Source of the DNA: Alphaproteobacteria bacterium
GTDB lineage: Bacteria > Pseudomonadota > Alphaproteobacteria > CBCXTS01
NCBI GenBank assembly: GCA_965178085.1
Contig: CBCXTS010000026.1
Span: 18,109 to 82,108 of the forward strand
Reading direction: 5' to 3'
DNA length: 64,000 bases
Made by a program: the position numbers and the translations under genes. The notes below the pieces were generated by a model. It made no database searches. It was not told the origin of the DNA and saw nothing but the letters and a program-made list of their open reading frames with translations. Position 1 is the first letter of the stretch. Each line of letters starts with the position of its first letter. Below, one piece after another: positions 2,448 through 15,301 of the stretch.

Positions 2448-2470
2448 AAAGACTATCTTTGATTTTTATT

Positions 2471-2486
2471 GTATGCATGTGTATAC
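2471..2486. promoter_or_regulatory. GT-N-AC type palindrome (GTATGCATGTGTATAC) in divergent tcuA/gntR promoter region
   Basis: Inverted GTAT..ATAC arms with perfect GTATAC core between the tcuA start and the gntR start. Confidence 0.25.
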
Positions 2487-2521
2487 TAAATAAAAAATTT
2501 AGTGTCAATAAAGGTTTTAAA

Positions 2522-3160
2522 ATGACAAATTCCTATGCTGAGATTGCGCATGAAAAAATCATACTTCTTATTAAAGAAGGTATATTGAAACCTGGGCAAC
2601 GGGTTATGGAAACCGATATAGCTAAACGCACAAATTTATCGCGTACTCCTGTTAGAGAGGCACTTAAAAAACTAGAGGCGGAAGAAATTATTATTCATCA
2701 AGCGAAAATTGGCGCAGTTATTAAAAAATTTAATCACCAAGATGTTATAGAGTTATATGAGGTGCGCATCATGCTTGAGAAAATGGCTGCCAAGCTTGCA
2801 GCACAACATGCAACGATGAGTGAAATTGACTTATTAAAAAAATATAATAATAAAATAGTGGATGCTGAGGAGCAAGAAAAAGCAGCTTCTTATAATAGTC
2901 AGTTTCATCAGATCATTATACAATCTACCCGCAATAGATATTTGCAAAAAGCATGGGAGCAATTAACAAAAAGCATTATTCTTTTAGGTCCTACAACATT
3001 ATATAGCGAAACACGTTATCAAGAAGCTTATTATCAACATCATGATATTATTAAGGCTATTGAAAATAAAGATGCTGAACACGCCATGGTCATGGCAGAA
3101 GACCATATGAATAGATCGCTTGAAATAAGGTTAACGCATATACATGACGGTTCTTATTAA
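2522..3160 (+). CDS. GntR-family (FadR-type C-terminal domain) transcriptional regulator; start moved to internal Met (MTNSYAEIAHEKI..)
   Basis: N-terminal winged-HTH pattern (DIAKRTNLSRTPVREALKKLE) plus all-helical FCD-like C-terminus; divergent from tcuA. Confidence 0.75.
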   Translation: MTNSYAEIAHEKIILLIKEGILKPGQRVMETDIAKRTNLSRTPVREALKKLEAEEIIIHQAKIGAVIKKFNHQDVIELYEVRIMLEKMAAKLAAQHATMSEIDLLKKYNNKIVDAEEQEKAASYNSQFHQIIIQSTRNRYLQKAWEQLTKSIILLGPTTLYSETRYQEAYYQHHDIIKAIENKDAEHAMVMAEDHMNRSLEIRLTHIHDGSY

Positions 3161-8321: not shown

Positions 8322-9410
8322 TTATTTTAAAGTAACACCATAATCATTTTCTAACCATTTTTTAACAAAAGCTTTTGCGCTAGCGTCAACATTAATGCCT
8401 TTTTGTAAAGCTTCGCCAGCACCATTACCGGTAAATAATTTATATTTACCTAACCGTTTTGCAGATATTTTGGCAAAATCAGCACGCTCACCAACTTTTT
8501 TAAAGGCCTTTGCAAATGTATCAATAACTTCTTGGTCTGTGCCTGCTGGTAAAAAAGCAATTTTTTGCACAGGGAAACCTGCTACAAAAAAGGCTTTCCA
8601 AGCATTCCATGCTTCGCCCTTTGTTTCACAACCATCTGTTGCTTCACAAACTTCCTTAAACGTTGGCAGGTTAGGGAAAGTTGGGTCACGCACAATATTA
8701 CCATTATCATCTAAAGCGCCCCAACTCATCATAGCCACAGCTTTACCATCTTGAACCAACTTAGCAGAAGCTTTTAGGTAAGAGGATGAGGTTTGATAAT
8801 CAATATTAGCTTCACCACGTTCAAACATTAAACGGCCATCGCCACGGCCTTTAATGCCAAATACTGGCTCAACATCTATACCCAACATTTTCCATGCTAA
8901 TAAAGGCACTAAGTCAAGACGTGTTGCACCTTGTGAGCCATAAATAAATTTTGTATCTTGTAATTTGTTGGCTGAACCATCAAAATTTGCACCATCTTTA
9001 GGGTTGAGATACGCAACACCGCCTGTGCCAGAAGCCATTACAGGGTTCCAATCTTTATATTCATATTTAACACGCGGGTCATCTAAAAGATAAGGAAATT
9101 GTGTGGAACCTGAAGAGCCAAACAATAATGTACCATCTCCATTTTTTTGTTTTTGGAACCAGTTTGCGCCTTTAGTAGAACCTGCACCTGGCATAAATTT
9201 TACTACAACCGTTGGGGTGCCAGGTAATGCTTCTGATAATAAAGGTGCAAAAAAGTTAGCCCATTTAGCTGAACCACCTGTTTCTGAAAATGGAATAATC
9301 CATTCAACTGTTTTGCCTGATAAATCAATATCAGCTTGGGCTGTATTAGCCAGTATAGCAAGAGAAGCAATACCAATTGCCGCTGTTTTTAGCTTTTTTA
9401 TAATTGTCAT
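8322..9410 (-). CDS. tctC: Tripartite tricarboxylate transporter substrate-binding protein TctC (Bug family), with signal peptide
   Basis: Signal peptide AAIGIASLAILANTAQA, about 36 kDa periplasmic binding protein with Bug/TctC-like motifs; first gene of tctC-tctA(B)-prpF-HADH minus-strand operon. Confidence 0.75.
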   Translation of the reverse strand: MTIIKKLKTAAIGIASLAILANTAQADIDLSGKTVEWIIPFSETGGSAKWANFFAPLLSEALPGTPTVVVKFMPGAGSTKGANWFQKQKNGDGTLLFGSSGSTQFPYLLDDPRVKYEYKDWNPVMASGTGGVAYLNPKDGANFDGSANKLQDTKFIYGSQGATRLDLVPLLAWKMLGIDVEPVFGIKGRGDGRLMFERGEANIDYQTSSSYLKASAKLVQDGKAVAMMSWGALDDNGNIVRDPTFPNLPTFKEVCEATDGCETKGEAWNAWKAFFVAGFPVQKIAFLPAGTDQEVIDTFAKAFKKVGERADFAKISAKRLGKYKLFTGNGAGEALQKGINVDASAKAFVKKWLENDYGVTLK

Positions 9411-9456
9411 TATAATCCTCCGTATGAATCGTAATAGTAAAGTTGATAATAAGTAA

Positions 9457-9525
9457 GCGTATTACACTAATTATGTAAAGCGTATTACACTAATTATGTA
9501 AAGCGTATTACACTAATTATGTAAA
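9457..9525. repeat. 3 perfect tandem copies of a 23-bp unit GCGTATTACACTAATTATGTAAA, each carrying TTACA-N7-TGTAA inverted arms and a cGT-att-AC-a GntR-like half-site
   Basis: Read directly; 47-115 bp upstream of the tctC start codon, i.e. in the promoter region of the tct operon. Confidence 0.9.
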
Positions 9526-9606
9526 GACTTTAACATATAAAACTTGCATTATGCTTGCATTTGCTGTGGGTATGGTTTTAATACAAAGTCTGAAAAGTTA
9601 AAATGG

Positions 9607-9720
9607 ATGTCAGTTTTTAACTCACTTAGAAACCTATACGCTCATGAAGGCAGTAAAGAAAAAGGGTTGAATAAAGACGAGGTTGAAACTCTTAAAAAGA
9701 TCCATGCTAATCTTATTTAA
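9607..9720 (+). other. 37-aa ORF / possible gene remnant with HEPN-like R-x4-H motif (MSVFNSLRNLYAHEGSKEKGLNKDEVETLKKIHANLI)
   Basis: Open frame 9541-9720 ends in charged helical tail containing RNLYAH; no upstream domain remains; could be relic of a HEPN toxin/Abi gene or noise. Confidence 0.15.
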
Positions 9721-9943
9721 GGTGACAGAACCCTCTAGTAAAAGTTTATTTGTTGGTGCAAATGTTGGTATATTTGTTTTTTTACATCGGTTTAATATTA
9801 TAAATATCAAATACTTAAAGCCTATTTATGAATGATGCCACCGCCATTTTATGATATGGGCATCCATATCCATTTAGTTACATTTTGATCAATATTGAAG
9901 ATATCAAAGTTGCAATTGTATCTTTGTTCATGATTGGCTGATG

Positions 9944-9990
9944 GGTATCTATTTGCAATCATCGATCAATAGGTTTAGTTTGGGATCTTG
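9944..9990 (+). promoter_or_regulatory. Conserved promoter/leader element copy 1 (putative -35 TTGCAA 9953-9958, 17-bp spacer, putative -10 TAGTTT 9976-9981)
   Basis: About 38/42 nt identical to a second copy at 11062-11108; both sit about 54 nt upstream of paralogous small membrane-protein genes. Confidence 0.4.
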
Positions 9991-10035
9991 TGATGTATGC
10001 ACAAAATCCTATCAATTGAATAAAAGAGCCAATAC

Positions 10036-10251
10036 ATGAAAACAGTTGATATAGTAAAATGGATTGCCACTATCATACAATTAATGGGGTATGGATTAAC
10101 TGGGCTTAACTATACCCCATGGAATATTTATATGTTTATCATTGGTATTATATTGTGGTTTTTGGTTGGCTTTATGTGGAAAGATAAAGCCATTATGATT
10201 GTACATATCGGGGCTTTCTTGTCATTATCAATAGGGTATTTGAATGCATGA
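10036..10251 (+). CDS. Small 3-TM membrane protein, PnuC-repeat-like (resembles C-terminal 3-TM half of nicotinamide riboside transporter PnuC)
   Basis: 71 aa, three hydrophobic helices; paralogous to ORF 11153-11386; W..A....G / W-KDK / I-HIGAF pattern resembles the second PnuC repeat; RBS-like AAAGAG upstream. Confidence 0.55.
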   Translation: MKTVDIVKWIATIIQLMGYGLTGLNYTPWNIYMFIIGIILWFLVGFMWKDKAIMIVHIGAFLSLSIGYLNA

Positions 10252-10753
10252 AATTGGCCAATGGGTGCAAGTTAATGATTCAATGCAAAAAAATTACGCA
10301 TACCAGATTGTAGCGCCATTAGGAGAGGATTTTGATGAGGGTTTTTATCCTGATTTAAGTCCAAAGGATATGCTAGAAATGGGCGTGTTTGAAGGAAAAT
10401 ATTTAAATGATTGTCAAAATGAATTTCCTAGTGATTGGTTTATAAAGATCAAATCAAGCCATAGACCTAATCCATCATTAAACTATTTTAAAATAAAAAG
10501 CAGACAATCTTTAAAAATATGGCAAATGAAGGGATGGATTATAGGTGACGACCCTAGGGGGTGGTTTCAATGGTATTGCAGATATTATCAAGGTAGGAGG
10601 ATGGAAAGCATTGATATGATCCAAATCAAGAGATGGAAAGCATTTTCTAGACATGCAGGACAAATAAGAAAAAACTGCAATCCAAATGATGTTTTATGTA
10701 GACCAAAACAAAGGCAAGCATTATTGCAATGGGCTTATGACCCTTTCATTTAA
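10244..10753 (+). CDS. Hypothetical 169-aa Trp/Cys-rich soluble protein, translationally coupled (ATGCATGA 8-nt overlap) to the small PnuC-like protein
   Basis: Intact ORF with overlap-coupled start; motifs GWFQWYCRYYQGRR and IKRWKAF; no family recognised from memory. Confidence 0.55.
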   Translation: MHEIGQWVQVNDSMQKNYAYQIVAPLGEDFDEGFYPDLSPKDMLEMGVFEGKYLNDCQNEFPSDWFIKIKSSHRPNPSLNYFKIKSRQSLKIWQMKGWIIGDDPRGWFQWYCRYYQGRRMESIDMIQIKRWKAFSRHAGQIRKNCNPNDVLCRPKQRQALLQWAYDPFI

Positions 10754-11061
10754 ACACAGTATGATATGATCATATAAAGTGACACCGAGATAGAGCATCA
10801 AAGCCATTAATCTTTGGTCAAATTTTGCAATGAATGGTTATGTCTTTAGGTCGTTTGAAAGCTGATCTGATAAGGCTTGAACTATGACAACGCCTATATA
10901 TCACATAAGATTTTGAGAGTTTTTTTATTTTTTAACGGTTGATAAAGTCACCAGGTCATCAAACTCAAATCTTGCGTTTTTTGGTGTGTTTTTGCCGTCT
11001 TTTGTTCAAGACTAAACCAAAATATATTTTTGACGCTCTTAAGGTTTTAATGTTTTGCTTA

Positions 11062-11108
11062 GCTATCCATTTGCAATCATCGATGAATGGGTTTAATTTG
11101 ATGGATTG
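11062..11108 (+). promoter_or_regulatory. Conserved promoter/leader element copy 2 (putative -35 TTGCAA 11071-11076, 17-bp spacer, putative -10 TAATTT 11094-11099)
   Basis: Duplicate of element at 9944-9990; about 53 nt upstream of start codon 11153. Confidence 0.4.
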
Positions 11109-11152
11109 GATAAAACAAACCCGATAATTGATCTAATAAAAAGGAATGATGA

Positions 11153-11386
11153 ATGCTCAATCCAAGCAATTTAAAATATTTGGAATGGTTTGCAGTGATC
11201 ACTGCGATAGCGTATTCTTTGCTTGTTGCATCCAATATTGATTTAGAATTTGCTGGTTTTACATTGCTGCTTATTTCTGCAATTGCTTTGGGAGTATGGG
11301 CATATATTGGCAAGCATAAGGGTATATTTTTTTTACAATTTTTTTATGCAACAGCAGCTATCATTGGCATGATCAGGTGGTTTTAG
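11153..11386 (+). CDS. Small 3-TM membrane protein, PnuC N-terminal-repeat-like (half-size PnuC)
   Basis: 77 aa; LEWFAVITAIAYSLLVASNI... and FFLQFFYATAAIIGMIRWF align with the E. coli PnuC N-terminal half as recalled from memory (LSWIEAVGTIAGLLCIGLASLEKISN ... LLLQVFFFAANIYGWYAW); RBS AAGGAA upstream. Confidence 0.6.
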   Translation: MLNPSNLKYLEWFAVITAIAYSLLVASNIDLEFAGFTLLLISAIALGVWAYIGKHKGIFFLQFFYATAAIIGMIRWF

Positions 11387-11440
11387 AGGGGTTTTCTCTC
11401 ATAGGGCTAACAACGAGCTTAAAATAAAACAGGGTATGGA

Positions 11441-11806
11441 ATGAAAAATAAAGTCATTAATATAAGAGATCAGTTTGATAAAATTGATTCGTTGTGGGCG
11501 CCTAAAATCATGTGCCAATTTAATCAATGTGATTTTAAAATTGTCAAAATTGATGGCGAGTTTATATGGCACTTGCATGAGGATACTGATGAGGTATTTA
11601 TCGTGGTTGAGGGTGAGTTTAATATGGAATTTAGAACCCATATTGAAAAGGTACAACAAGGGGAGATGATTGTTGTTGAAAGAGGGGTTGAACATAGGCC
11701 AGTATCAGCCCAGGAATGTAAAATCATGCTCATAGAGCTTTCAGGCACTTATAATACAGGTAATGTTGAAAGCAACAGAACCAAGCCTATGGATGAATGG
11801 ATTTAA
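11441..11806 (+). CDS. Cupin-domain protein (metal-binding HxH...E...H motif)
   Basis: WHLHEDTDEVFIVVEGEF ... GVEHRP conforms to cupin motifs 1 and 2; 121 aa. Confidence 0.7.
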   Translation: MKNKVINIRDQFDKIDSLWAPKIMCQFNQCDFKIVKIDGEFIWHLHEDTDEVFIVVEGEFNMEFRTHIEKVQQGEMIVVERGVEHRPVSAQECKIMLIELSGTYNTGNVESNRTKPMDEWI

Positions 11807-11930
11807 TTTGATATCAATAAAAACCCAAGAGATAAGGCAGTAAATAGAACATAGTCATGCAATGGAGAATGTGGTATAAGTTAATGAAAAGCAATATCAC
11901 TCAATCATCATTAATAGGGCATATTTATTT

Positions 11931-12806
11931 GTGGATATGACGGATAAATTAGATAGCCGAGATAGCATTGTATTTGAGTTGGTTGATCTTGAGCAATATC
12001 CTATACATAGGATCAACGAACCAGCAGGCAAAGGGCATAATTTTTTAAAGCGTTGCCAACAGCATATGGAGGAATATGGCTGGTGCAATTTTGTCGAATT
12101 TATCAAACCTGAGGCACTCAATATTTTGCGTAATGAGGCTCTTGATTTATTGCCATCTGCTCAAATTTTAACCATTAGAAGAAATATTTATCAAGGTGCG
12201 GTTGAAAATAGTATGGACCCTGATGATTTAAAATCGCGTGAATATGTGCATACTGCACATCAATTGGCTGATGATCAAATCCCTAATCATAGTGCTATAC
12301 AAAAACTATATCAATCAACATTGGTGACAGATTTTATTAGACAAGTGCAAAAAAAGGACACCCTCTATCGTTGTAGCGATGAGTTTCAAGCGCTTAATAT
12401 TGTTGCTCTCAATCCTGAAAGTTGGCATGCTTGGCATTATGATACAATAGAATGCACCGTAACATTATTGTTGCAAGCATCAGAGCAGGGAGGTGAGTTT
12501 ACGTTTATCCCCAACTCTCGTGATGATGAAATGGAAGATACACAAAGAGTTAATCAAGTGCTTGGAGGTGATCTGTCAAAAGCAGAAACTTTTAAAAGAG
12601 ATGCAGGCGCATTAACGTTATTTCGTGGTGGATATTCATTGCACTCAGTTACAAAAGTAAAAGGCACAAAACCACGAGTTACTGCAATTTTTACCTATAG
12701 TGAAGAACCTCATGGTGCAATCAGCGATGATCTTAATATTAGAATTTATGGTAAAAGGGCTGAAAATATAATCAACCAAAGAAAGTTAAAAAAGGAAATC
12801 CAATGA
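11931..12806 (+). CDS. Putative Fe(II)/2-oxoglutarate-dependent oxygenase-family protein
   Basis: HxD...H candidate facial triad (WHYD ... SLHSV) and RVTAIFTY candidate 2OG-binding Arg; 4-nt ATGA overlap with downstream hydrolase gene. Confidence 0.5.
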   Translation: MDMTDKLDSRDSIVFELVDLEQYPIHRINEPAGKGHNFLKRCQQHMEEYGWCNFVEFIKPEALNILRNEALDLLPSAQILTIRRNIYQGAVENSMDPDDLKSREYVHTAHQLADDQIPNHSAIQKLYQSTLVTDFIRQVQKKDTLYRCSDEFQALNIVALNPESWHAWHYDTIECTVTLLLQASEQGGEFTFIPNSRDDEMEDTQRVNQVLGGDLSKAETFKRDAGALTLFRGGYSLHSVTKVKGTKPRVTAIFTYSEEPHGAISDDLNIRIYGKRAENIINQRKLKKEIQ

Positions 12807-13363
12807 CAATAGCCCTTTTAGTAATTGATGTACAAATGGCTTTAGCAATTGATGATGCCAATGGTGGAGAACGCTCATGCCGAGAGGCTGAGGGGAATAT
12901 TGGTCAATTATTGTCAGCATTTAGACAAACAGATCATCGTGTCATCCATATCCATCATTATGGACTTGATGATGATGATCCGTTTAATGAAAAGGCTGTT
13001 GGCTCAAAAGTGCAACCATTTGCTAAGCCCAATAATGGAGAAAAAACATATGTCAAAAATGGCAGCAGTGCATTTATAGGCACAACGTTAGAAAAAGATT
13101 TACGTAAAGATAATATCAAAACATTAATCCTTTGTGGTGCAACAGCAAATCATTGTGTTGAAACAGCAACACGCATGGGAAGTAACCTTGGATTTGATTG
13201 TTATTATGTTGGTGATGCTGTTTGGGCCTATGGTGTAAAAGGGCCAGATGGTACCCACCATAGTGGTGAGCAAATACATTCTGTATCGATGGCTAATATA
13301 GAAGGTGAGTTTGCTAGAGTTGTAACAACCAAAAAAATACTAGCTGATTTGGCTAGTTTTTAA
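12803..13363 (+). CDS. Isochorismatase-family cysteine hydrolase (same fold/family as nicotinamidase PncA, YcaC, RutB)
   Basis: Catalytic Asp in LLVIDVQ, Lys in YVKNGSSAF, nucleophile Cys in LILCGATANHCVETA. Confidence 0.8.
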   Translation: MTIALLVIDVQMALAIDDANGGERSCREAEGNIGQLLSAFRQTDHRVIHIHHYGLDDDDPFNEKAVGSKVQPFAKPNNGEKTYVKNGSSAFIGTTLEKDLRKDNIKTLILCGATANHCVETATRMGSNLGFDCYYVGDAVWAYGVKGPDGTHHSGEQIHSVSMANIEGEFARVVTTKKILADLASF

Positions 13364-13411: not shown

Positions 13412-13486
13412 CTTAAACTGATTGTGTGGGATTAAACTGATTGTGTGGGATTAAACTGATTGTGTGGGATTAAACTGATTGTGTTC
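13412..13486. repeat. About 3.8 tandem copies of a 19-bp unit ATTAAACTGATTGTGTGGG
   Basis: Read directly; in the convergent intergenic region between the isochorismatase-family gene and the GMC oxidoreductase 3' end. Confidence 0.85.
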
Positions 13487-13660: not shown

Positions 13661-15301
13661 TTAGGTTTCTTGTAAGATGAGATCGGATACTTTTTCTGCA
13701 ACCATGATAGTGGGTGCGTTTGTGTTGCCTGAGGTGAGAGTTGGGAAAATGGAGGCATCTACAACGCGCAAGCCTTTAACGCCATATAGTTTTAAATGCT
13801 GATCGACAACATCCTCTTGTGCATTTGGGCCCATTTTGCAAGTACCTACCGGGTGAAAAACCGTGCTACAGCGTTTCTTGAAATCGTCAATAATTTGCTG
13901 GTCTGTCGGGATTGGTTGGTCGCTAGGGGCTTGCTGACTGCTGGGGTTGGCAATAGGCGGAGCAATTCTGTGTTCAGTAATGGCTGCTAAGGCTGGCATT
14001 TTTGCAAGTTGATATAGCAATTGAACACCTTCAAGCATCTCGTCAATATCGCGTTGGTCATCGAGATATTTGGGTTGGATATGAGGGGCAATTGTGGGAT
14101 CGCTGGATGCGATATTGATAAAGCCTTTGCTATAAGGTCGCAAAGGTTGGATAGATAATTGAAAGCCCGGGAAGGGATCAGGTTTGAGCAAGGGTCGTTG
14201 ATTTTGGGGTGCTTTGGTGTAGCTCACAGGTGAGAAAAAAAGCTGCATGTTGGGGCGGGTCAAGCCAGTGTTGGTGCGGATAAAACCCCCTGCTTGATTA
14301 ACCCCAAGAGAAAGCGGGCCTTTTAAAGTAAATAGATAGCGTAATGCGTGCTTAACTTTACCCCAAAGCGGGCCTAATTCTTGGTTAAGGGTAGGCGTGT
14401 TAGCACGATAAAGCAAATCAATGCCTAGATGATCTTGCAAATTTTGTCCAACAGCAGGTGCATGATGGATCACTTTGATGCCAAATTGCTTGATGAGATT
14501 GGCATCACCAATGCCGGATAATTGTAAAATTTGGGGTGAGTTAATTGCCCCAGCAGCAAGAATAACCTCTTTTGCAGCAGAAATTTGCTTGATTTGGTTG
14601 TTGTGCTTATACTCAACACCTATTGCTTGTTTGTTGTGAAACAAAACACGTTGCACTAATGCCTTTTTGATTAGTTTAACATTGTTGCGTTTTCGAGCAT
14701 CCCACAAATAAGCGCGCGCGCTTGACATACGAAAACCACCCTTCATGGTGTTTTGGTAGTAACCTACGCCTTCTTGGGTTTTGTTGTTGAAATCTGGATT
14801 ATAGGAAAAGCCATACTGGGTGCATGCCTTGATAAAATTGTGGCAAATTGGATGTAAATCTTGACTGACATCGGTAATATGCAAAGGCCCTTGATGATCG
14901 GGGCTTGAGGTAGAGCTTGTCTCAGCTTTTTTGAAATAGGGTAAAACATCATCCCAACCCCATATTGTGTTACCAAGTGCTTTCCAATGGTTAAAATCTT
15001 CTGCCTGTCCGCGGATGTAGACCATTGCATTGATAGAACTTGAGCCACCTAAAACTTTACCGCGTGGGCAATAAATGCGCCTATCATCGAGGTTTTTTTG
15101 CTCTTGGGTTTGATACATCCAATTGATATTGCTATCATAAAAAGCCTTGCCGTACCCGATAGGCATTTGTACCCATAGATTGAGATCAGAGCCGCCAGCT
15201 TCAAGAATAGCAACGGTGTATTTTCCATTTTGTGACAATCGATTAGCAAGCACGCATCCAGCAGAGCCAGCTCCGACAATAATGAAGTCATATTGATCCA
15301 T
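13661..15301 (-). CDS. GMC-family FAD oxidoreductase (choline dehydrogenase-like)
   Basis: N-terminal YDFIIVGAGSAGCVLANRLS FAD motif, about 546 aa, GMC signature regions. Confidence 0.85.
   Translation of the reverse strand: MDQYDFIIVGAGSAGCVLANRLSQNGKYTVAILEAGGSDLNLWVQMPIGYGKAFYDSNINWMYQTQEQKNLDDRRIYCPRGKVLGGSSSINAMVYIRGQAEDFNHWKALGNTIWGWDDVLPYFKKAETSSTSSPDHQGPLHITDVSQDLHPICHNFIKACTQYGFSYNPDFNNKTQEGVGYYQNTMKGGFRMSSARAYLWDARKRNNVKLIKKALVQRVLFHNKQAIGVEYKHNNQIKQISAAKEVILAAGAINSPQILQLSGIGDANLIKQFGIKVIHHAPAVGQNLQDHLGIDLLYRANTPTLNQELGPLWGKVKHALRYLFTLKGPLSLGVNQAGGFIRTNTGLTRPNMQLFFSPVSYTKAPQNQRPLLKPDPFPGFQLSIQPLRPYSKGFINIASSDPTIAPHIQPKYLDDQRDIDEMLEGVQLLYQLAKMPALAAITEHRIAPPIANPSSQQAPSDQPIPTDQQIIDDFKKRCSTVFHPVGTCKMGPNAQEDVVDQHLKLYGVKGLRVVDASIFPTLTSGNTNAPTIMVAEKVSDLILQET

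Follow-up and report, generated by a model that had tools for sequence, protein, structure and literature searches.

In the analyzed window, a stretch of 64 kb (64,000 nucleotides) from an alphaproteobacterial contig, two genes for small membrane proteins are each preceded by nearly the same short block of DNA. This raises the question of whether the two genes share a promoter, a regulatory site or a leader, or whether the block is a trace of rearrangements in this region.

The repeated block and the genes downstream of it

An earlier note on this DNA had reported a duplicated element of about 45 bp located 53-54 nt upstream of two small genes. The duplication is real, with a chance expectation of zero, and was measured as a block of 37 nt in which 33 of 37 positions (89%) were identical in an ungapped alignment. 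Copy 1 is located at 9946..9982 (TATCTATTTGCAATCATCGATCAATAGGTTTAGTTTG) and copy 2 at 11064..11100 (TATCCATTTGCAATCATCGATGAATGGGTTTAATTTG), both orientated into the plus direction and each lying 5' of a small transporter-like gene with three transmembrane (TM) helices. The distance from the end of the block to the start codon was 53 nt for copy 1 (ATG at 10036) and 52 nt for copy 2 (ATG at 11153), which bears out the position given before. Relative to these starts the copies span from -90 to -54 and from -89 to -53, respectively. Written as a search pattern the block reads TATCYATTTGCAATCATCGATSAATRGGTTTARTTTG. A 32-nt degenerate consensus occurred exactly twice in the 64 kb, compared to 0.00 occurrences expected from shuffles. 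An assembly artefact can be excluded, since the two copies differ and their longest common exact run is 16 nt.

The edges of the block are sharp and its flanks without significant similarity; the left flanks of both copies are unrelated (p 0.4 to 0.9, shuffles). The downstream leaders had been described as related as well, which could be confirmed as a marginal likeness only (p about 0.05 to 0.10 against shuffles). Here, a motif on the side of copy 1 (10003..10019, plus strand, AAAATCCTATCAATTGA) is complementary to the 3' half of the block and has a counterpart of marginal similarity on the side of copy 2 (11117-11132, plus strand, AAACCCGATAATTGAT, p 0.05). Terminal inverted repeats of the block were not found, nor were minus-strand copies within the 64-kb window.

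Both downstream genes had been regarded as miniature pnuC genes. For the gene behind copy 2 (11153..11386, plus strand) this holds below the usual threshold. It encodes a three-helix membrane protein of 77 aa resembling the N-terminal third of PnuC, with a score of 18.1 bits against PF04973 (NMN_transporter) at a Pfam gathering cutoff of 27.3. In its family 14 of 15 members matched the same model at E<=0.05, all of them sub-threshold. The structure model of the protein could be superimposed on part of the PnuC structure 4qtn with a TM value of 0.67 and an rmsd of 2.0 A over 67 columns (Foldseek E 1.7). The gene behind copy 1 (10036..10251, plus strand) encodes a three-helix membrane protein of 71 aa, which had no PnuC match in Pfam, belongs to the family DUF6552 (E 5e-30) and is weakly SemiSWEET-like. 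The structure models of both proteins (pLDDT 85.5 and 89.9) showed three helices, compared to about 7-8 TM helices in the PnuC architecture. The two proteins are not detectably related: BLASTP gave a match of 8 residues only (E 0.049) and hhalign a probability of 0.9%.

The two families of three-helix, transporter-like proteins of 70-80 residues are of larger biological interest than the repeat. One of them was found with 64-81% amino acid identity (tblastn) across SAR11, HIMB59, SAR116, acI Actinobacteria, SUP05 and Halieaceae.

The DUF6552 gene is followed by a gene (10244..10753, plus strand) for a protein of 169 aa without a Pfam model, which is a member of a large family. Since the start of this gene overlaps the DUF6552 gene by 8 nt, both are probably part of one operon. 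Downstream of the PnuC-like gene a gene for a cupin of 121 aa is located (11441..11806, plus strand), followed by a 2OG-Fe(II) oxygenase gene (11931-12806, plus strand) and a gene of the isochorismatase family (12803-13363, plus strand). These last three genes constitute a module, which was present in another genomic neighbourhood in a relative (here referred to as L088).

The block is judged lineage-specific, since in 80 genome loci it did not precede the homologues of the PnuC-like gene, and stray matches in wider scans had unrelated flanks. Nor did it precede the closest homologues of the DUF6552 and PnuC-like genes in 14 further loci, and gapped local alignment of both copies with the 94 loci revealed no relative except for the cupin end of L088. 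A metagenome scan with TTTGCAATCATCGATNAATNGG yielded only 2 matches, both GC-rich and with unrelated flanks; one had the arrangement TTGCAA-17-TATAAT and was taken as coincidental. A viral scan yielded only 10 matches, again with unrelated flanks, which were inferred to encode the Walker-B-like stretch ...A-I-I-D-E.... HIMB59-like loci have an upstream block of their own, TTGCAC-N17-TAAATA, whose spacer is conserved. It was similar in geometry but did not align with the element, and no RNA structure was found for it (consensus -3.3 kcal/mol).

A partial third copy at the end of the cupin gene

No third full copy was present in the 64 kb. However, the search revealed a partial copy 3 at 11792..11812 (plus strand, GATGAATGGATTTAATTTGAT). 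It covers the last four codons of the cupin gene (D-E-W-I) together with the TAA stop and 6 nt beyond, and it lacks the -35-like hexamer of the full copies. It was identical to copy 2 (11082-11102) at 20 of 21 positions, with 0.01 such matches expected. The part of the block that matches the cupin 3' end includes the -10-like hexamer as well as the 3' part of the spacer, namely the codons D-E-W-I/V and the stop followed by TTTGAT. Read in the cupin frame, copy 2 gives D-E-W-V-stop and copy 1 D-Q-stop.

The C-terminus D-x-W-I/V-stop is kept across the cupin family. Among 18 homologues with 40-78% identity W120 was invariant and D118 nearly so, and all of them ended with W-I/V. Since copy 3 is located at this conserved C-terminus, what had been noted as a conserved spacer and -10 was most probably copied from the gene end, and the cupin gene is the likely source of the 3' half of the block. 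The copying event is judged recent, because copy 3 differs from copy 2 at one position and from the L088 orthologue at two positions of the same 21 nt (TAA versus TGA among them). A cupin pseudogene extending past the last 4 codons was not found upstream of copies 1 and 2, either by tblastn or by a six-frame hmmsearch using the profile of the family.

Based on these results the following order of events is proposed. The 3' 21 nt of the block would have originated as the cupin gene's end (codons D-E-W-I/V, stop and 6 nt), a step that may be called largely shown, and would have brought in the -10-like TAATTT along with the 3' part of the spacer. At copy 2 this cupin-derived stretch would have been joined to an unrelated 5' segment carrying TTGCAA exactly 17 nt upstream, and the fused 37-nt block would then have been copied again to the site 5' of the DUF6552 gene. 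In this way the repeat would have spread within a small variable gene island at about 9.4-13.5 kb of the window. It counts against this explanation, the best one at hand, that we know of no mechanism for the copying of a 20-40-nt patch.

The copies may also lack a function and be scars or junction repeats that arose through successive insertions or rearrangements at a recombination-prone cupin 3' end, so that their positions would mark the boundaries of cassettes. We regard this as possible, if doubtful. The sharp edges of the block fit such an origin, as does the arrangement of the genes: the DUF6552 and 169-aa genes lie between copies 1 and 2, along with a non-coding stretch of 310 nt, and the PnuC-like and cupin genes are bracketed by copies 2 and 3. 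In L088 the core was independently duplicated, as a direct repeat of roughly 75 nt around an unrelated insert of 0.9 kb. Furthermore, the GC content of the island is below that of its flanks, and two perfect tandem arrays are located at its bounds. However, no recombinase, integrase or transposase was found when 47 ORFs of the window were scanned with Pfam, and the block has neither terminal inverted repeats nor minus-strand copies. The near-equal distances of 53 and 52 nt to the start codons of unrelated genes would be unexpected for a mere scar. The roles as scar and as promoter are not mutually exclusive.

The region itself is judged prone to rearrangement, since in L088 the module is situated elsewhere and the cupin 3' end is duplicated around an insert. 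A HEPN-like fragment, weak and below threshold, was found in the intergenic region 5' of copy 1; the Pfam scan of the intergenic six-frame translations revealed nothing beyond it. An integron attC site or cassette array was rejected: GTTTAAT and GTTTAGT do not fit the integron core GTTRRRY, which also speaks against the scar reading, no inverted copy was found and no recombinase was detected among the 47 ORFs.

A more far-reaching proposal would treat the core ATsGATsAATrGrTTTrrTTt at the cupin 3' end as a recombination hot spot or attachment-like site, which works without a linked integrase, is duplicated on insertion and doubles as a portable promoter. We consider this quite unlikely. If true, the locus would be an array of two cassettes, with copy 1, the DUF6552 and 169-aa genes, copy 2, the PnuC-like and cupin genes and copy 3 in this order, and L088 would represent an independent insertion at the same core. 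Small gene sets would then have been inserted in a host lineage of streamlined marine Alphaproteobacteria.

Promoter, operator and leader readings

The earlier note had read the element as a sigma-70-like promoter. The arrangement in question is present in both copies: the -35-like TTGCAA (9953-9958 and 11071-11076) is separated from the -10-like TAGTTT of copy 1 (9976-9981) and TAATTT of copy 2 (11094-11099) by a spacer of 17 nt (9959-9975 and 11077-11093, respectively), which is within the range of 16-18 nt. However, the hexamers are weak, with 7/12 matches to the consensus per copy (4/6 for TTGCAA and 3/6 for TAGTTT or TAATTT), and neither site was called by a consensus promoter scan at a threshold of 9/12. 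A promoter-like site with 9/12 matches (ATGACA, 16 nt, TAAGAT) is located upstream of copy 2 at 10884-10911. This stronger site would place copy 2 inside a 5' untranslated region, which argues against a promoter at copy 2. Additionally, the 21 nt common to copies 2 and 3 are no promoter by themselves, since copy 3 has no -35.

The position of the full copies fits a promoter: they share one orientation, and the starts of the two non-homologous genes follow at distances of 53 and 52 nt. The geometry of TTGCAA, 17 nt and TAnTTT is in its favour as well. The best reading, with a probability of about one half, would be that a locally and recently spread DNA block was reused as a putative core promoter. 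The two full copies would then be the common core promoter of two unrelated small-transporter operons, one with the DUF6552 and 169-aa genes and the other with the PnuC-like and cupin genes. Such promoter reuse or capture would lead to a similar basal transcription of both operons, for which a dedicated operator or RNA switch would not be needed. This candidate for promoter reuse would be a fairly ordinary case, and any action of the block would be at the DNA level. If the block is an active promoter, the joining of a stop-codon region to a TTGCAA segment would have produced a portable promoter of 37 bp for two unrelated genes, and the locus would offer a traceable instance of how promoters are born and reused in a small and streamlined genome.

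The conserved and palindromic spacer had led to the proposal of an operator. According to this proposal a dimeric factor would bind to the dyad AATCATCGATSAAT or to the inverted repeat ATCYATT-N14-AATRGGT within the promoter and co-regulate both operons. The dyad, which is centred around ATCGAT within the spacer, was symmetric at 12 of 14 positions in copy 2 and at 10 of 14 in copy 1, and the 7-nt inverted repeat was kept in both copies through a double change from T-A to C-G. A functional link is hinted at by an actinobacterial locus of the acI lineage (L005), in which both protein families were found within 1 kb; this was, however, just one of 80 loci.

The proposal is undercut by the near identity of the 3' spacer part and the -10 to the cupin 3' end. 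The right half of the dyad is cupin sequence, so that copying explains the conservation of the dyad, and would account for the conservation of the spacer better than selection on a binding site. Furthermore, no additional site was found in the 64-kb window and no similar sequence upstream of orthologues. A regulator gene is not adjacent; the sole one found, a GntR/FCD gene at 2459-3160, adjoins an operon of a tripartite tricarboxylate transporter (TctA family). The operator thus has little support and is considered unlikely. Other binding sites were compared by eye and rejected. An IHF site, a DnaA box, a CtrA box and the NadR box TGTTTA-N6-TAAACA were each not conserved in both copies. A sigma-54 promoter would read TGG-N8-TTGCA in copy 1, but copy 2 has TAG in place of the essential GG, at a site outside of the conserved block.

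A small riboswitch-like fold of the leader had been suggested too. In this model AATRGGTTT would have two alternative pairing partners, ATCYATT upstream and AAAyCC...AATTGA in the leader downstream, as in a riboswitch or an attenuator. Each copy allows either of the two helices to be drawn. The change A9971/G11089 is complemented in both partners, by T9950/C11068 upstream and by T10010/C11122 downstream, although this covariation comprises one position in two sequences only. The marginally conserved leader motif (p 0.05) and the stronger promoter-like site upstream of copy 2 would also fit a transcribed leader. The complementarity at A9971/G11089 is in line with a constraint on an RNA or hairpin and was counted against the promoter reading.

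The leader fold itself was not borne out. The element had no Rfam match at E<=10, the NAD+ classes included, and at the gathering threshold the whole window contained only a tRNA. Fold z-scores against shuffled sequences were -0.84, +0.14, +1.15 and +0.10 on both strands, without a signal of stability, and the minimum-free-energy folds of the two copies differ. The duplex of element and leader was not significant for copy 1 (p 0.30 against shuffles and 0.49 against random genomic windows) and borderline for copy 2 (p 0.02 and 0.11). Half of the block is a copied gene end, and the block was absent upstream of homologues in about 90 loci of many lineages. Such an absence across so many lineages is unlike any riboswitch known to us. 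The probability that remains for a leader RNA is very low, and the riboswitch reading has almost no support. The case also cautions against taking the conservation of two copies within one genome as evidence of an operator or riboswitch.

Finally, the block could be part of small upstream ORFs encoding leader peptides. The first of these (9941-10039, plus strand) has 32 aa, and the second (ATG at 11050 to 11127, plus strand) has 25 aa. The same reading frame is open in both copies, with the common core I-[YH]-L-Q-S-S-[IM]-N-[RG]-F-[SN]-L, and at copy 1 the stop codon overlaps the start of the DUF6552 gene as ATGA, which suggests translational coupling. However, all four nucleotide differences are non-synonymous in this frame, and the stop is not conserved in position, as at copy 1 it overlaps the gene start, whereas at copy 2 it precedes the gene start by 25 nt. 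ATG 9941 has no convincing ribosome-binding site and the peptides had no family matches. Leader peptides are accordingly considered extremely improbable.

Comparison with known systems

The NAD+-II riboswitches (pnuC motif) resemble the present case in being elements 5' of a PnuC-like gene. They differ from the block, for which neither a covariance-model match nor a stable or common fold was obtained and which is not conserved beyond its own genome. Additionally, the proteins encoded here are miniatures with three TM helices, unlike those of NAD+-II and other Pnu-family riboswitches.

With attL/attR-type repeats the locus has in common that blocks of genes are flanked by short direct repeats duplicating the 3' end of a gene, and that the same core flanks a different insert in a related genome. 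In contrast to these systems, integrase or mobile-element genes are missing, the repeat is situated 5' and not 3' of the intact gene, and its copies are imperfect.

A sigma-70 core promoter is resembled by the -35-like TTGCAA, the 17-nt spacer and a TAnTTT keeping T1, A2 and T6, as well as by the position of the block about 45-50 nt 5' of a Shine-Dalgarno sequence and start codon. The difference is that the -10 of the block consists of a stop codon and 3 nt from a copied gene end, at a total match of 7/12.

Highly similar upstream blocks before unrelated genes have been documented as "putative mobile promoters" (PMC3575422), in work on promoter reuse by Matus-Garcia, Nijveen & van Passel 2012, with PMC3575422 as its commentary. 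They were defined by an identity of at least 80% within one genome over at least 50 nt and by non-paralogous downstream genes (PMC3575422). The identity of 89% is above this limit, and the downstream genes are non-paralogous by the comparisons given above (BLASTP E 0.049 over 8 residues, hhalign 0.9%). The length of 37 nt is below 50 nt, and the flanks are not significantly similar. As in the documented cases (PMC3575422), similar non-coding blocks are located within -150 to -50 (here -90 to -54 and -89 to -53) of non-paralogous genes in one genome, and neither is associated with an IS element. What sets the present putative promoter block apart from the mobile promoters (PMC3575422) is that for part of it a source can be named, the 3' end of a coding gene next to it.

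The 37-nt repeat and the cupin gene end

Direct reading of 9000-12500 and a repeat finder revealed a gapless 37-nt direct repeat, here referred to as the block. Copy 1 (9946-9982, TATCTATTTGCAATCATCGATCAATAGGTTTAGTTTG) is located upstream of gene 1, a member of DUF6552, and copy 2 (11064-11100, TATCCATTTGCAATCATCGATGAATGGGTTTAATTTG) upstream of gene 2, encoding a PnuC-like protein of 77 aa. The two copies were identical at 33 of 37 positions, and a 32-nt degenerate consensus of the block had exactly two sites in the 64-kb window, with 0.00 expected from shuffles. The 21-nt 5' half was found at two sites only, even when 3 mismatches were allowed. Between the block end and the start codon there were 53 nt in copy 1 (ATG 10036) and 52 nt in copy 2 (ATG 11153). 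Both copies contained TTGCAA, a 17-nt spacer and TAGTTT (copy 1) or TAATTT (copy 2), located as the earlier note had described. Since repeat finder, shuffle counts and geometry all confirm it, the observation of a direct repeat stands; the repeat is real and its description was correct.

The similarity of the left flanks of both copies was not significant (p 0.40 to 0.94). The leaders, i.e. the DNA between block and start codon, had been proposed to be related as well. Some similarity is present, but it is marginal and not significant (p 0.05 in local, 0.10 in global alignment), the best local match being AAATCCTATCAATTG..AATAAAA versus AAACCCGAT-AATTGATCTAATAAAA.

Scanning the window with each of the copies in gapped mode, together with pattern searches, led to a partial copy 3 at 11792-11812 (GATGAATGGATTTAATTTGAT), which shared 20 of 21 positions with 11082-11102 of copy 2 (0.01 expected). 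In total, three local copies with sharp block edges are present. Copy 3 is not intergenic but partly coding, consisting of the last four codons of a cupin gene (GAT GAA TGG ATT, D-E-W-I), its TAA stop and 6 bases. In an alignment of 18 homologues (40-78% identity) W120 was invariant, D118 nearly so, and all sequences finished in W-I or W-V; to judge from this alignment, the cupin C-terminus is ancient. The cupin reading frame continued through the other copies as D-E-W-V-stop (copy 2) and D-Q-stop (copy 1), and the -10-like TAATTT corresponds to the stop codon plus three bases. The 3' 21 nt of the block are hence common to a conserved gene end, and the part that had been taken for a conserved spacer and -10 box reads as a copy of that end. 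The 5' half (TATCYATTTGCAATCATC) had no counterpart at copy 3. As neither tblastn nor a profile search of six-frame translations found another cupin remnant upstream of copy 1 or copy 2, the copying was limited to a short patch.

Genes downstream of the repeat

Gene 1 (10036-10251, 71 aa) was assigned to DUF6552 with an E-value of 5e-30, while gene 2 (11153-11386) matched no family above threshold. The product of gene 2 aligned to positions 1-66 of the PnuC model with E 0.0028 (18 bits, cutoff 27) and to a phage PnuC-like PHROG with E 0.031. The same sub-threshold PnuC match was obtained for 14 of the 15 members of its family. Between the products of both genes no relationship was detected by BLASTP (an 8-residue match only) or hhalign (probability 0.9%). 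The designation as two mini-PnuC genes was therefore too strong: gene 2 is PnuC-like below the threshold, gene 1 belongs to DUF6552.

AlphaFold models of both products were three-helix bundles (pLDDT 85.5 and 89.9), which are too small for Foldseek to return a significant match in the PDB, and none was found. The 77-aa model could be superposed on part of PnuC 4qtn (TM 0.67, rmsd 2.0 A). With the DUF6552 profile, SemiSWEETs were the only matches among PDB sequences (E 0.23 to 10), a weak likeness.

The family of the 77-aa protein has no Pfam model. Its members share 64-81% identity (tblastn) across phyla of streamlined plankton, namely SAR11/Pelagibacteraceae, HIMB59-like, SAR116, acI Actinobacteria (Nanopelagicus, Planktophila), SUP05/Thioglobus and Halieaceae, and one cluster is present on 988 contigs. 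The consistent sub-threshold likeness to the N-terminal third of PnuC suggests a half-size Pnu/SWEET-type candidate transporter that was spread by horizontal transfer. In an acI locus (L005, 1083-3213) a DUF6552 gene lies directly 3' of an AIR-synthase-like gene, read from its sequence as a putative ThiL, and a homologue of the 77-aa protein follows about 650 nt downstream of the DUF6552 gene. Locus L082 (978-4304) shows the betB/betA-like order aldehyde dehydrogenase, DUF6552, GMC oxidoreductase; a choline-dehydrogenase-like GMC gene is also located in the window (13661-15301). These neighbours give hints only of thiamine- or choline-related substrates. Of the two subjects, the small transporter families are a more interesting lead than the repeat.

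A gene encoding 169 aa (10244-10753) overlaps gene 1 by 8 nt. Its product carries the motif DPRGWFQWYCRYYQGRR and had no match in Pfam, NCBIfam, PHROG or PDB. The family is large (2045 cluster representatives at E<=1e-3, 126 at E<=1e-30), with N-terminal extensions in many members and one member of 1696 aa. Gene 2 is followed by genes for the cupin, a 2OG-Fe(II) oxygenase and an isochorismatase-family protein.

Distribution and possible roles of the block

We retrieved 80 species-level genome loci of the 77-aa family, including SAR11, HIMB59-like, SAR116, acI, SUP05/Thioglobus and Halieaceae. The block was present in none of them (0/80), and in most the 77-aa homologue was located immediately 3' of another gene. 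It was also not found at the loci of the closest DUF6552 homologues (L081, L082, L089-L094) or the closest 77-aa homologues (L083-L085). When JGI metagenomes were scanned for exact matches to a 20-base core, only two GC-rich matches with unrelated flanks were obtained, and a viral scan gave ten unrelated matches that read as ...AIIDE... coding sequence. The block is lineage-specific.

Loci of HIMB59-like Alphaproteobacteria share a conserved block of their own, about 55 nt long, upstream of the 77-aa homologue (L001, L006, L007 and L025 at ~2920-2975; L085 at ~85-140). It reads GTATTGCyAwGTTTGCACAAnnAGTATGCrnnAGTTAAATACCATTAG, comprising TTGCAC-N17-TAAATA, in which the spacer is conserved, and inverted repeats of the form GTATT...AATAC. 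Considered as a relative of the window block it was rejected, since the geometry is similar but the two do not align. No convincing RNA structure was found for it, and it may represent a regulated promoter of this clade.

The geometry of the window block is compatible with a sigma-70 promoter. What speaks most for a positional role of the promoter type is that the block lies almost equally far from the start codons of two unrelated genes. The hexamer matches are weak (-35 4/6, -10 3/6), a consensus scan called neither site, and copy 3 has no -35. The scan did call ATGACA-16-TAAGAT (10884-10911), situated some 150 nt before copy 2. With 9/12 it scored highest among the sigma-70-like matches of the 400-nt intergenic region preceding gene 2. 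If this site were active, copy 2 would lie inside a 5' UTR of roughly 240 nt.

A regulated operator, as had been suggested, is not supported, the evidence for it being thin. The dyad is imperfect (10/14 in copy 1, 12/14 in copy 2) and half of it is cupin-derived, and the 64-kb window holds no further block site. Among 47 ORFs scanned, which included no recombinase, the sole regulator was a GntR/FCD protein 7 kb away, whose gene adjoins a tripartite tricarboxylate transporter (TctA-family) operon.

Nor is the proposal of a riboswitch-like leader supported. Rfam returned no family match to the block even at E<=10, and the folds computed for segments of about 100 nt and for the 47-nt core differed between the copies, with z-scores of -0.84 to +1.15. 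Two mutually exclusive helices can be drawn by hand, pairing AATRGGTTT either with the upstream ATCYATT or with the leader motif AAAyCC..AATTGA. Both partners carry the complement of the sole variable base of this strand (A9971/G11089); this is the only covariation, with two sequences behind it. The element-leader duplex energy was not significant for copy 1 (shuffles, p 0.30; random genomic windows, p 0.49) and borderline for copy 2 (p 0.02 and 0.11, respectively). No other lineage has the block, which makes a riboswitch very unlikely.

Small upstream ORFs traverse both copies. The stop of a 32-codon ORF across copy 1 (9941-10039) joins the DUF6552 start as an ATGA overlap, and the matching ORF across copy 2 stops 25 nt upstream of gene 2. 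The stop positions are not conserved, and because all four copy differences are non-synonymous in frame, ORF 9941-10039 is probably not meaningful.

A variable island and the probable origin of the block

In the relative L088, which shares the cupin, oxygenase and isochorismatase genes at ~77-79% nucleotide identity (cupin protein 78%), homology to the window begins 6 nt upstream of the cupin ATG and stops just past the isochorismatase stop. DUF6552, the 169-aa gene and the PnuC-like gene are absent from the matching place, where a tRNA and unrelated DNA are found; the module adjoins this tRNA in a neighbourhood unrelated to that of the window. At the position of copy 3, L088 reads GATGAATGGATTTGATTTTAT. 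Copy 3 differs from copy 2 at one position and from this orthologue at two, so the copying is later than the split of both lineages and thus recent.

The region of the repeats is a small variable island with a GC content slightly below that of its flanks. Two perfect tandem arrays of 72 nt each, the top-scoring ones in the window (9455-9526, 23-nt unit AAGCGTATTACACTAATTATGTA x3.1; 13413-13484, 19-nt unit TTAAACTGATTGTGTGGGA x3.8), are mutually unrelated and flank a low-GC segment of roughly 3.9 kb with all three copies and six genes. A 58-aa ORF (9544-9720) with an R-N-L-Y-A-H motif matched the C-terminal part of Apea-like HEPN below threshold (E 0.01). We regard this ORF as a probable gene fragment; it would point to decayed or rearranged DNA in the intergenic region (625 nt) that precedes copy 1.

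The main rival explanation regards the copies as junction repeats left by insertions at a recombination-prone site. It is favoured by L088, where the same cupin end was duplicated independently over about 75 nt; the resulting direct repeats flank an insert of 0.9 kb, by which the oxygenase gene is truncated at its 5' end. These repeats (10318-10410 and 11255-11350) comprise the 3' end of the cupin gene plus some 50 nt beyond it and are roughly 85% identical; by eye, the insert carries a zinc-ribbon-like ORF and a Ca-binding-repeat-like fragment on the minus strand. Junction repeats can coexist with a promoter role, so that neither excludes the other.

As the most likely history, ending in reuse as a promoter region, we envisage that the cupin-end patch was fused with a TTGCAA-bearing segment upstream of gene 2. 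At this position a usable core promoter would result from TTGCAA, the 17-nt distance and a TAATTT derived from the stop codon, and the fused 37-nt block would later have been reused upstream of the DUF6552 operon. We therefore class the block as a small case, specific to this genome, of a reused promoter region whose origin is traceable to the 3' end of the neighbouring gene. Comparable upstream blocks before non-paralogous genes were described as putative mobile promoters by Matus-Garcia, Nijveen and van Passel; they lie between -150 and -50 and share at least 80% identity over 50 nt or more (PMC3575422). The window block agrees with these in every respect but length, 37 nt as compared to at least 50 nt (PMC3575422).
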